Part shown: piece after piece, positions 1-5,282 of the stretch
Layout: the number at the start of each line of letters is the position of its first letter
How positions within the stretch are numbered: position 1 is the first letter of the stretch
IMG/VR virus record: IMGVR_UViG_2654587792_000026
Span: 1-5,282 of that record
Source: a virus
Lineage: Duplodnaviria; Heunggongvirae; Uroviricota; Caudoviricetes
DNA: 5,282 bases
Strand: one strand, 5' to 3'
The notes under the pieces: generated by a model
The model's database searches: none
Seen by the model: the letters and a program-made list of their open reading frames with translations, nothing else
Told to the model about the DNA's origin: nothing
Position numbers and translations under genes: made by a program

Positions 1-42
1 GCATGACAAAGTCATCGGGCATTATCTGAACATAAAACACTA

Positions 43-120
43 TCAATAAGTTGGAGTCATTACCAACTCATACTGCTCCGGTGTTTTAGCATTACCAGCT
101 TTTATGTTCTTTAAGTGCAT
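43..120 (-). pseudogene. Start of a tail-fibre assembly (Tfa/U-type) gene, apparently truncated after ~25 codons
   Basis: ATG at 120-118 lies 4 nt downstream of the fibre cassette stop (127-125). Manual translation gives MHLKNIKAGNAKTPEQYELVMTPTY followed by TGA at 45-43. From memory, an MHLKNI...EQY start is the conserved N-terminus of Mu U / e14 TfaE-type assembly proteins, which are far longer than 25 aa. A shifted frame is open from ~67 to the window start, so a frameshift or continuation off-window cannot be excluded. Confidence 0.35.
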
Positions 121-124
121 CACA

Positions 125-1312
125 TTAAACGCTCGCTACATTATACCAGGTGCCATTTATATACTTTTGAACAGGTCTGTAATAAACGCCAGCTATATTA
201 TCGGCAGAGTTGGACCCTGTATCCTGAACATTAATACCAGACAATACATGACCTGACGGGCACTGGAAATTCCATGTTTGCCAGTTGTTCACACCATGAT
301 ATTGCTGTGAACCAAGACGAACATCTTTCACATAGCGGGAATCAAAATTCCCCCAGTTGCTGGGTTGTATCTGACCGTTAACAGCAAATATCACCGAGTT
401 ATCTGTATTTCGCTGACTATAGAAATGCCAGCCTGAATCATCACCAAGCTCTGCAACAGTTGGTCTTGACGAATTTCCCCACAAGCTAAATGATGCATTA
501 CGGGCAGCGGTATTTGCACTTGAAAGTGTGAAGAACTTACTTTCCCCAGCCTGAATACCCTTTAATGATCTTGCTGAACCATTTATAAAGCGGAATACAT
601 GCACACCATTAGCATAAGCATCCAGCACCCCATCACCATTTTGTTTAAACCCGGTATCGTTATCTCCTAAAACAATCGAGTTACCGCCAAGAGCACTGGA
701 TGTTCCGATGCCCAGTGCACCATTCAATTGACCGCCAGATAATGACAACGCCCCAACCTCAGCAGCAGTCGGTTTAATGTGCGAACTGTAAATTACATAT
801 ACAGTTCCATCTGTCAGACCTGTTGGTTTATTCGCTGTATAAGATGGTGATGTATGAATCGTTACGCTGGCGTTACTGGTATAATCCCACTGAATATTAA
901 CACCTGTGGCGTAATTACCTATTTCAACATAAACATCATAGGTATCACCGGATGTATTCACCCATGCAAAATTAGTAAATCCAACCGATGTCCGTCGCCA
1001 TAATGCACCAGTAATGCCTTTTGGATTCCCATTTCCTGCACGCAGAACCAGCTCAGAGATGCCTGCTTGATGCGAGGAGCCAACGTTATACCCTGCGCCA
1101 CCAATCAGGCTTATGTAAACCACGGAACTGGCTTGTGGCATTGTTACAGTTGCCAGTTTGAACCATCCAGCACCACCACTAAAAGACATGGTTGTTGAAT
1201 TTGTTGTGCCGATATTACGCAGGAATAGTTTTTTATCGGGAATATCTGCGCCGTTCTGGTTTTTCTGTAATGCACCAGAAGCCTGATTTACCGTTTCCTG
1301 TAAACCGAGGTT
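125..1312 (-). CDS. Tail-fibre variable C-terminal cassette, promoterless and in the silent orientation of an invertible segment
   Basis: The ORF track gives 125..1189, but the same frame stays open upstream to a TAA at 1315-1313 inside the crossover site, adding NLGLQETVNQASGALQKNQNGADIPDKKLFLRNIGTTNSTT before the first Met. The product is Gly/Ser/Asn/Thr-rich with a ...NWGNFDSRYV... motif near the C-terminus, typical of fibre distal receptor-binding domains. It is divergent from the invertase gene and starts within the recombination site, as Sv' does in the Mu G segment. The ATG at 1189 is therefore probably internal. Confidence 0.75.
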   Translation of the reverse strand, partial: NLGLQETVNQASGALQKNQNGADIPDKKLFLRNIGTTNSTTMSFSGGAGWFKLATVTMPQASSVVYISLIGGAGYNVGSSHQAGISELVLRAGNGNPKGITGALWRRTSVGFTNFAWVNTSGDTYDVYVEIGNYATGVNIQWDYTSNASVTIHTSPSYTANKPTGLTDGTVYVIYSSHIKPTAAEVGALSLSGGQLNGALGIGTSSALGGNSIVLGDNDTGFKQNGDGVLDAYANGVHVFRFINGSARSLKGIQAGESKFFTLSSANTAARNASFSLWGNSSRPTVAELGDDSGWHFYSQRNTDNSVIFAVNGQIQPSNWGNFDSRYVKDVRLGSQQYHGVNNWQTWNFQCPSGHVLSGINVQDTGSNSADNIAGVYYRPVQKYINGTWYNVASV

Positions 1313-1320
1313 TTAGATAA
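1295..1320. other. 26-bp gix/pix/cix-type crossover site for the DNA invertase
   Basis: TTCCTGTAAACC-GA-GGTTTTAGATAA: two 12-bp imperfect inverted half-sites around a central GA. It matches my recollection of Mu gixL (TTCCTGTAAACCGAGGTTTTGGATAA) at 25 of 26 positions and lies ~55 bp upstream of the invertase start. The inner half encodes the LGLQE junction peptide of the fibre cassette. Confidence 0.8.
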
Positions 1321-2494: not shown

Positions 2495-5282
2495 TCAATC
2501 TTTATCGTAAAAACTGCCACGCCCGGCACGGGCGCGCCGTTCCATTTCTGCCCTGACCATTTCGCCAACCAGTTTCGCCAGTTCGCGGGGATTCTGTGTA
2601 ACAACGTTATGCAGATGAACATGAATTTCACCGCCAAATCCGGAGGCAACAGGCTCCCGGTTACGGGAAGTTGCAGGAACTGATGCCACTGGCGATCGTA
2701 TAGCCTCCGCCACCGGGCGGGAGCTGGCCGCAACAACAGGGACCAGCGCCGGAGGCAGCGGAGCCGGAACCACGGGTGTGATAGTAATTGCGGGGGCAGG
2801 CTTACTGACCTGCGCAATCTTCCGCTCCTGCCACTCCCCACGAACAGCAAGTGCGCGGGGCAGGTTCTTAAAGACAATATCGCCGGGGCCAATGCGTTTT
2901 TTCGTCTCATCAACCAGCTTACCTGTGTTATCAGCAATTTTGCTGAGTCTGCGTAGCGTACCGGTATTGTTGTCTGTGAGCGGTTTGTTGTCTCTGGGTT
3001 TATCGCCTTTTTTGTCGTCGACCTTATCTGACGGGGCCGGGCCGGGAGTCCATGGTTTCTGAACCATTTTCTTGAGAACCGGATCCCATTCCCACATTAC
3101 AGGAGCCTTTGAAGCGTTCTCTATTTTCTTTCTCGCCCGTTCCGCTTCATCCGGAAGCACTCCGAGCTTTTCAAGTATCCACGCCAGTGAATCCATCAAT
3201 GCTTTTGTTGGCGTCAGGACAAGCTCTATCGCTCCACCGAGTACCCTGCCGAATACCTCGCCAGCACTGGTACATTTATCCAGCGTTTCCTTGCTGGACT
3301 CCATCGGTGACAGCAGCGATTTAAACCAGTTAAAGACCTGAATAATCCCATCGCGCACGACATCAAAAACTGGACCGAACCGTTCAAAGGTTTCGCGCAA
3401 CGGAGCCAGCCGTTCCATAATCCCACTGAACACCCCTGCATAAAACGCCTTGATGGGTTCCCAGTATTTCCAGATGAGAACCGCCGCAGCCACAAACGCA
3501 GCAGCAATCAATCCGACCGGGCTGAACAGCGCCCCGATAGCGCCCCCCAGTAACGAAACGGAACCCGTCACCATTCCCCATAGTGCTGGCAGGAGCCTGA
3601 CAGCATTCATTGATCCGGTCAGGAGGGAAAAGCCAAGACGCAGTTTTGCCAGCGGGCCAGCAAGCACACCAATAGCCAACGACAACGAGCCGACCGTTGC
3701 AGTCATCGCCAGCAATGCCCCACCTGCAATCAGTAGCTGGCGCGTCAGTGCCGGATGGGCCTGCGCCAGCGCCGTCACCTTTGATACCACCCGCGTGAGC
3801 CACTGCGTGACAGAACGCAGCGGACCGTCAATCAGATCTGCAATGCGGATGCGCAACCCTTCCCATGCACTGCCGAGTGATTTCAGATCGCCGTCAAGGT
3901 TGTTGGCCATAACCTTTGCCGTGCGTTCAGCCTCACCGCGTGCGCCTTCAAGTTCTTTTCTCAGTTTAGGTAAGGATCCGTCACCTGCCGCATCAACGAG
4001 GGCCATAAATGATGTGAAAGCCTCTTCTCCGGCAATGTCCTTAAAGAACGATACCCGATCAACTTCTCCGTATTTGCGGGTGGCTTTATAAAGGTCAGTC
4101 AGCAGATCTTCCATCGGGCGCATTTTGCCCCCGGCATCCGAGACAGACACGCCCAGCTCTTTCAGCGCCTCTGCTGCCGCCTTTGGCGGTGATGCCAGAC
4201 GAGCCAGGCTGGCACGCATTGCCGTCCCGGCATCACTTCCCCTGATACCCATATTCGCCAGCACGCCCGCCATCGCTGCGGCCTGCTCCAGCGATATTCC
4301 CAGCTTACCCGCCACCGGACCTGCATATTTCATGGTTTCGCCCAGTGCGCGAAGGTCAGTGTTGGTACGGGTAAACGCTGCAGTGAGTGTGTCACCGACC
4401 CGGTCCATCTGGTCAGCAGAAAGGCCGAACTGCGTCAGGATATTTGAGCCAATATCCGCCGTCTCGCCGAGATCCATACCGCCAGCCGTTGCCATGCTCA
4501 ACACGCCGGGAAGCGCAGCCTGAATGGCCTGCGGTGTGAAGCCAGCCATTGCAAGAAATGCCTGCCCACTGGCGGCATCGCCTGCGGTGAACTGCGTTTC
4601 AGAGCCAAGTTTTAACGCCTGCTCACGCAGCGCCTTAAACTGCGGGCTGTTCTGGTCGATTCGCGTCAGCGCCTGAACGCGGGACATCTCTTTCCCGAAC
4701 CCGATCGCAGGCTGCAAAAAACGCCCGGCAGCATAGCCGCCCGCCGCTGCCGCACCTGTTGCCAGTGCACCACCTGTTTTCAGTTTTCCCGCGGTTTCCT
4801 GCGCGCGCGAATACCGCTCACGCGCCCGCGTTACACGCGCAAGCGCCTGCCGTTCGCGTTCAAGCTGGTTGTTGTACTGTTCGGTGCGTCTGATGGCCTG
4901 TTGAATGGTGTTATCGCTGCCTGTCAGGGAAATGCCGTGGCGTTTCAGCTCTCCGCCAAGCTCCCGCATTTTCTGAATCTCCCGTGTGCGCGATTCATTC
5001 AGGCGTTCAAGCCGGGTGCTTAACTGCTGCATCAGCTTTTGTTGTTTTTCGCTGAGCACTGTACCCGTGTGTTGTAACTGATTAAGGGCGTTAAGCTGGC
5101 GTCGCGCTTTCAATATGCCAGCATCCGCTTTACTGACAGCGTCACGGGCGCGCTCAAATGAACGCGCCTGACGCTCGAGATTTTTGATCGCCCCCTGCGT
5201 TCGCTGGATGGAGTCACCAAACTGCCCCATCAGGCGGCGGGCGTTTTCGGCAGGCCGGGTCAGCCTGTCAACGGCGCTGAAA
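2495..5282 (-). CDS. Phage tail tape-measure protein (length-determining), 5' end outside the window
   Basis: More than 911 codons; the frame remains open from the ATG at 5230 to the window edge at 5282, so the N-terminus is probably off-window. It has a charged Gln/Arg/Glu-rich helical N-terminal region, an Ala/Gly-rich tract, a core with ...YAGPVAGKLGISLEQAAAMAGVLANMGIRGSDAGTAMRASLARL..., a ~100-residue hydrophobic stretch (~3461-3754) and a Pro-rich C-terminal region (~2642-2800). All are typical of tape-measure proteins. Confidence 0.85.
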   Translation of the reverse strand, partial: FSAVDRLTRPAENARRLMGQFGDSIQRTQGAIKNLERQARSFERARDAVSKADAGILKARRQLNALNQLQHTGTVLSEKQQKLMQQLSTRLERLNESRTREIQKMRELGGELKRHGISLTGSDNTIQQAIRRTEQYNNQLERERQALARVTRARERYSRAQETAGKLKTGGALATGAAAAGGYAAGRFLQPAIGFGKEMSRVQALTRIDQNSPQFKALREQALKLGSETQFTAGDAASGQAFLAMAGFTPQAIQAALPGVLSMATAGGMDLGETADIGSNILTQFGLSADQMDRVGDTLTAAFTRTNTDLRALGETMKYAGPVAGKLGISLEQAAAMAGVLANMGIRGSDAGTAMRASLARLASPPKAAAEALKELGVSVSDAGGKMRPMEDLLTDLYKATRKYGEVDRVSFFKDIAGEEAFTSFMALVDAAGDGSLPKLRKELEGARGEAERTAKVMANNLDGDLKSLGSAWEGLRIRIADLIDGPLRSVTQWLTRVVSKVTALAQAHPALTRQLLIAGGALLAMTATVGSLSLAIGVLAGPLAKLRLGFSLLTGSMNAVRLLPALWGMVTGSVSLLGGAIGALFSPVGLIAAAFVAAAVLIWKYWEPIKAFYAGVFSGIMERLAPLRETFERFGPVFDVVRDGIIQVFNWFKSLLSPMESSKETLDKCTSAGEVFGRVLGGAIELVLTPTKALMDSLAWILEKLGVLPDEAERARKKIENASKAPVMWEWDPVLKKMVQKPWTPGPAPSDKVDDKKGDKPRDNKPLTDNNTGTLRRLSKIADNTGKLVDETKKRIGPGDIVFKNLPRALAVRGEWQERKIAQVSKPAPAITITPVVPAPLPPALVPVVAASSRPVAEAIRSPVASVPATSRNREPVASGFGGEIHVHLHNVVTQNPRELAKLVGEMVRAEMERRARAGRGSFYDKD

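Follow-up and report, generated by a model that had tools for sequence, protein, structure and literature searches.

A probable bixR-type crossover site of a tail-fibre inversion switch in a P2-like prophage

Genes and features of the contig

Here, we analysed a stretch of 5,282 bp, called the window in the following, which is the complete draft contig JHTM01000208.1 of assembly GCA_001506145.1. Many complete E. coli genomes harbour P2-like prophages that align with the window at 94–97% identity, and over the invertase region named phages such as P88 are 97% identical to it. Its plus strand carries a gene for a serine DNA invertase of 196 amino acids with a GTG start (positions 1375–1965), which begins 55 bp from the 26-bp site at positions 1295–1320 that is the subject of this study. 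Further to the right, the minus strand harbours genes for a P2 gpU-family tail protein (1994–2482, PF06995, product of 162 amino acids) and for a tail tape-measure protein (2495–5282, TIGR01760), the latter running off the right contig end with 928 codons in the window compared to 935 amino acids in relatives. The contig stops at position 5282, approximately 7 codons before the tape-measure start, with no IS sequence at this end; if the genome contains another P2-like prophage of related sequence, a branch in the assembly graph could be the reason. Between the convergent invertase and gpU genes, a hairpin with a perfect stem of ten pairs and T runs in either strand (1957–1982) looks, from its sequence, like a putative bidirectional terminator. 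A search against NCBIfam yielded no family for gpU or for the fibre cassette described below.

In the related prophages, the genes for the baseplate proteins J and I, the fibre gene H, a chaperone gene, an inverted chaperone gene, an inverted fibre end and the recombinase gene follow each other in this order. Past the recombinase gene lie the gpU, tape-measure, tube and sheath genes on the opposite strand, and then gpD and Ogr. The block of sheath, tube, E, tape-measure and gpU genes is opposite in strand to the baseplate and fibre genes in loci L001–L012, with the invertase gene at the block junction; in canonical P2, the tail block is not known to be strand-flipped against the baseplate and fibre genes.

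The invertase contains a Resolvase (PF00239) and an HTH_7 domain (PF02796), is 85% identical to Gin of phage Mu and possesses Ser9 and Met114 as well as the Q-x-x-R-L motif that marks Fis-dependent invertases; residue roles, the chemistry of Gin and Fis dependence were described previously (PMC3575834, PMC3798978). The exact protein is encoded on 67 contigs of public assemblies, the sources of which are labelled E. coli, and the relatives obtained by an exact-protein look-up were all free of IS1. Over 110 bp (1375–1484), the 5' end of the gene is 100% identical to that of Mu gin, within which Kahmann et al. reportedly located a recombinational enhancer in 1985. In the Hin system, the proximal Fis site is found ~100 bp from hixL (PMC3798978). 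By analogy with Mu gin and the Hin spacing, we infer a putative Fis-binding recombinational enhancer region at 1375–1484, in the first part of the invertase gene and 70–180 bp from the crossover point. An overlap of the 26-bp site with the invertase promoter was considered as well and is unsupported, as a sigma-70 promoter scan of positions 1100–2100 was empty.

To the left of the invertase gene, the minus strand encodes a variable C-terminal tail-fibre cassette (125–1306) equivalent to Sv' of Mu, identified by its translation, by an in-silico fusion and by homologous cassettes in relatives. The cassette begins at the inner half-site of the 26-bp site (GLQETVNQ...), ends with the stop codon at 127–125 and lacks an initiation codon of its own before the ATG at 1189. 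Across the site, the minus-strand fibre frame reads II*NLGLQETVNQ..., and the in-frame TAA at 1315–1313 closes the cassette on the invertase side; a minus-strand TAA within the outer half-site (1309–1320) had been noticed by a preceding sequence-only reading, which expected it to stay out of any expressed fusion. This expectation was borne out in silico: when the window cassette was joined to the constant part of the L014 or L002 fibre, taken through the core, a single open reading frame of 863 or 775 amino acids was obtained, in which ...VIEYL is followed directly by GLQETVNQ.... Given this uninterrupted frame, the window cassette can be regarded as a usable alternative fibre end, and the TAA of the outer half-site is irrelevant to any fusion. 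The minus-strand fibre fragment is a silent cassette and no pseudogene in the usual sense.

The cassette (125–1294) is a mosaic, parts of which match lambdoid 'prophage tail fiber N-terminal domain' genes (91%), while other parts match 48-kb plasmids of E. coli ATCC 25922 (96%) or Mu-like Yersinia phages (92%) and SfMu. An end-to-end match of high identity was absent from the complete E. coli genomes, and the exact 354-amino-acid fibre product was found by exact-protein look-up solely on the window's own contig.

Next to the cassette, positions 65–120 of the minus strand hold the first 18 codons (MHLKNIKAGNAKTPEQYE) of a silent gene for a tail-fibre assembly protein (chaperone), the remainder of which is cut off by IS1; relatives have a full Caudo_TAP gene for 175–177 amino acids at the chaperone position. 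The terminal 64 bp of IS1 (1–64, minus strand) form the contig end at the same time and are identical to the IS1A end at positions 1201–1264 of L016. Homology to the prophage relatives begins at base 65, and IS1 annotation underlies the matches to bases 1–64. The IS1 sits within the invertible segment, in the silent chaperone gene and 1.24 kb from the crossover point, with AACTCATAC (9 bp) as candidate target sequence. The assembly broke at this IS1 repeat, and the position of the distal site falls outside the contig.

Identity of the 26-bp site

The plus-strand 26-mer TTCCTGTAAACCGAGGTTTTAGATAA at 1295–1320 shows the 12-2-12 structure that the sequence-only reading had assigned to it, with the inner half-site TTCCTGTAAACC (1295–1306), the core GA (1307–1308) and the outer half-site GGTTTTAGATAA (1309–1320). 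Imperfect inverted 12-bp half-sites with the conserved TTC...AAACC, a 2-bp core and an adjacent serine invertase gene with catalytic serine and HTH domain are all present, and the site fits the Din-family sites tabulated in PMC3241671 (Table 3). An alignment with the sites of this family, as proposed by the sequence-only reading, revealed a 26/26 match to bixR, the invertase-proximal site of the PinB/B-segment system. In the same table, gixL and gixR of Mu share one sequence, TTCCTGTAAACC GA GGTTTTGGATAA, and both sites annotated as 'G-segment boundary' in the Mu genome (NC_000929, locus L015) read TTCCTGTAAACCGAGGTTTTGGATAA. The window site differs from them by a single base, an A for G at window position 1315. 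The earlier description of the site as one base off Mu gixL was thus accurate in distance, whereas the base had been placed at 1316 by a one-base miscount; likewise, 'gixL-like' named the right hix/gix/cix class, but the closest known site is bixR and not a gix site. The designation as an L site had to be abandoned, since the place beside the invertase gene is that of an R site and the two Mu sites do not differ in sequence.

The A at 1315 represents the normal state of the bix family and not a mutated gix. But, could the site still be a point-mutated gix site from Mu or a Mu-like prophage? The single mismatch to gixL/gixR and a DNA identity of 92% to Mu over a stretch covering the site and ~300 bp at the start of gin point in this direction, whereas the gene context does not: Mu carries com/mom after gin, while the invertase gene of the window is followed by P2 gpU and a P2-type tape-measure gene, and the relatives are complete P2-like prophages with gpD, Ogr, sheath and tube genes. 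In addition, the supposedly mutant base agrees with published bixR and recurs in hundreds of genomes. We therefore rejected a Mu prophage, regard this origin of the site as very improbable and replaced the Mu framing of the sequence-only reading by that of a P2-like prophage.

A scan of the window allowing up to 3 mismatches found no second copy of the 26-mer, inverted partner included, and 200 dinucleotide-preserving shuffles gave no match at the same threshold. Besides the site, the window contains 9 half-site matches compared to 3.5 expected; each of them lacks a second half-site, and additional sites of the shufflon type are thus not indicated in the window. A chance resemblance without function is refuted by the empty shuffles (0/200), the exact match to a published site and the conserved place beside an invertase gene, and we consider its probability negligible. 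Hence, we interpret the site as the invertase-proximal (bixR-type) recombination site of a tail-fibre inversion switch of the Gin/PinB class in a P2-like prophage, with a probability of roughly 0.9.

Partner sites and the state of the segment

Of 5,426 complete E. coli genomes, 743 contain the site together with its flanks. Exact copies of the 26-mer are present in 69 IMG/VR contigs and were absent from one-genome-per-species contigs. All 12 related loci examined (L002–L012, L014) contain exactly two sites: the fibre gene harbours an inverted bixL, bixR adjoins the invertase gene, and each outer half-site remains fixed to its own flank. The bixL sequence (TTCCTGTAAACCGAGGTATTCGATAA / TTATCGAATACCTCGGTTTACAGGAA) is exact in these loci and in 20 IMG/VR loci, and relatives with identical invertase and bixR carry the exact inverted bixL 2.9–3.3 kb leftwards, on the side for which the sequence-only reading had predicted an inverted partner. 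The claim that the site ends an invertible tail-fibre segment is upheld: the site is a true member of the hix/gix/cix class and marks the end of the segment that is proximal to the invertase gene.

The invertase of the window is encoded without any difference in ten loci, and their interior of 2,925 bp, counted from one central dinucleotide to the other, is found both ways round. L003 and L007 have flanks with 100% identity, while their 2,925-bp interiors are 100% identical solely as reverse complement; the same holds for the interiors of L004 and L008, with 98.8–99.99% identity of the flanks. These two pairs of natural isolates show inversion at exactly these sites. Phase variation at the level of sequencing reads was described for P2-like E. 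coli prophages by Goldberg et al. 2014 (PMC4272514).

The extent of the inverted repeat differs between loci. In L002 (6997–7100 / 10220–10325), and similarly in L014, it reaches ~80 bp into the segment and spans the conserved start of both cassettes, GLQETVNQASGALQKNQNGADIP, while in Mu and L003 it covers ~34 bp. Beyond the outer half-sites, the flanks are unrelated. Some related viral contigs possess three sites: L068 has direct bixR copies at 5181–5206 and 6380–6405, 1.2 kb apart, along with an inverted partner, and L085 has sites at 1–26, 2953–2978 and 4944–4969, including an extra bixL-type site. Both are shufflon-like multi-cassette variants and resemble the EPEC locus of 'two interlaced funnels' (PMC4272514).

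What, then, is the state of the switch in the present genome? The most likely reading, which we hold to be probable, is a simple insertion of IS1 into the silent chaperone gene; such an event, presumably recent, is favoured because the invertase is intact. Following this argumentation, the partner site would be expected ~3.7–4.1 kb leftwards (2.9–3.3 kb plus 0.77 kb of IS1) and the segment would still be able to flip, with one of the two orientations leading to a fibre without its own chaperone.

It is also conceivable, if less probable, that the site is an orphan relic, with an IS1-mediated deletion or rearrangement having removed the rest of the segment together with bixL, so that nothing would be inverted locally. 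The contig end in IS1 lies inside the segment, and the exact-match scan found the IS1/chaperone junction in none of the 5,426 complete E. coli genomes and in none of the one-genome-per-species contigs, both of which agree with such a loss. Lone bixR sites exist as well: the partner test was limited to the 39 of 69 IMG/VR contigs with enough DNA leftwards, and the inverted partner was present in 29 of these informative loci at 2.9–3.3 kb (one at 4.9 kb), while in the remaining 10 none was found within 6 mismatches (L018, L021, L026, L035, L042, L056, L058, L059, L061 and L081). In these ten loci, however, invertase homology ends after roughly 190 bp (range about 110–390 bp), in several of them at a contig end, and these recurrent remnants look like frozen, degraded switches, whereas the invertase gene of the window is intact and its product identical to the protein on the 67 contigs mentioned above. 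The unmutated site likewise argues against a relic, as does the nature of IS1 events, which are simple insertions in most cases. We assign a low probability to two further variants: an orphan bixR with an intact invertase that acts only in trans, or an IS1 that is inverted inside an enlarged flipping segment. Din invertases cross-complement, which provides a basis for action in trans on sites of other prophages in the same cell.

Proposed switch and comparison with known systems

Judged by its homology to Gin and Hin, the invertase would bind as dimers to bixR and to the inverted bixL inside the tail-fibre gene, and the enhancer at the start of the invertase gene, with Fis bound to it, would join these dimers into an invertasome. 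Ser9 would then cut both strands at the central GA, a pair of subunits would rotate by 180 degrees and the DNA would be religated, by which the ~3 kb segment flips. The constant N-terminal fibre part would thereby be joined to either of two C-terminal receptor-binding cassettes, each with its own chaperone, and this swap is expected to switch the host range. In the present orientation, the window cassette would be silent, while the TAA of the outer half-site would remain beside the invertase gene and never enter a fusion.

We thus suggest the label bixR for the site, as the crossover site next to the invertase gene in a tail-fibre switch of the PinB/Gin type that serves host range in a P2-like prophage. 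This is the correct identification of a known feature: the system dates from 1991, and switches of this class have been recognised since the early 1980s. The importance beyond correct annotation is slight. For assembly and annotation, the locus holds two lessons: an IS1 in the segment splits draft assemblies just where the partner site is needed, and such loci may show either orientation between otherwise identical strains.

The closest known system is the invertible B segment of Shigella with pinB, bixL and bixR, which was reportedly described by Tominaga, Ikemizu and Enomoto in 1991 (J Bacteriol 173:4079; GenBank D00660). The window 26-mer is bixR, the inverted partner in the relatives is an exact bixL, and a segment of ~3 kb with alternative fibre ends and chaperones and an invertase gene just outside bixR is common to both. 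In contrast to the B segment, the segment of the window is interrupted by IS1, and the contig shows no bixL. The G segment of Mu with Gin shares the 12-2-12 site with GA core (25/26), the invertase with Ser9 and Met114, the identical beginning of the invertase gene, and the layout of constant fibre part, site, Sv-U, U'-Sv', site and invertase gene. It differs in one base of the outer half-site, in the constant fibre part and in the genes past the invertase, the window element being P2-like. More distant are Hin/hix of Salmonella, Cin/cix of P1, Pin/pix of e14 and Min/mix of p15B, which have the enzyme class, the 26-bp architecture and the TTC...AAACC half-site in common with the window, but an AA core instead of GA and more differences in the half-sites; Hin moreover acts on a promoter, whereas the window system acts on fibre fusions. 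With regard to the element itself, the prophages of EPEC E2348/69 and phages like P88 are similar, as they are P2-like and have an invertase gene adjoining the fibre genes. In EPEC E2348/69, both orientations of the P2-like fibre loci were shown by reads and PCR (Goldberg et al. 2014, PMC4272514); the fibre loci of these prophages and of P88 are intact, while that of the window bears IS1.
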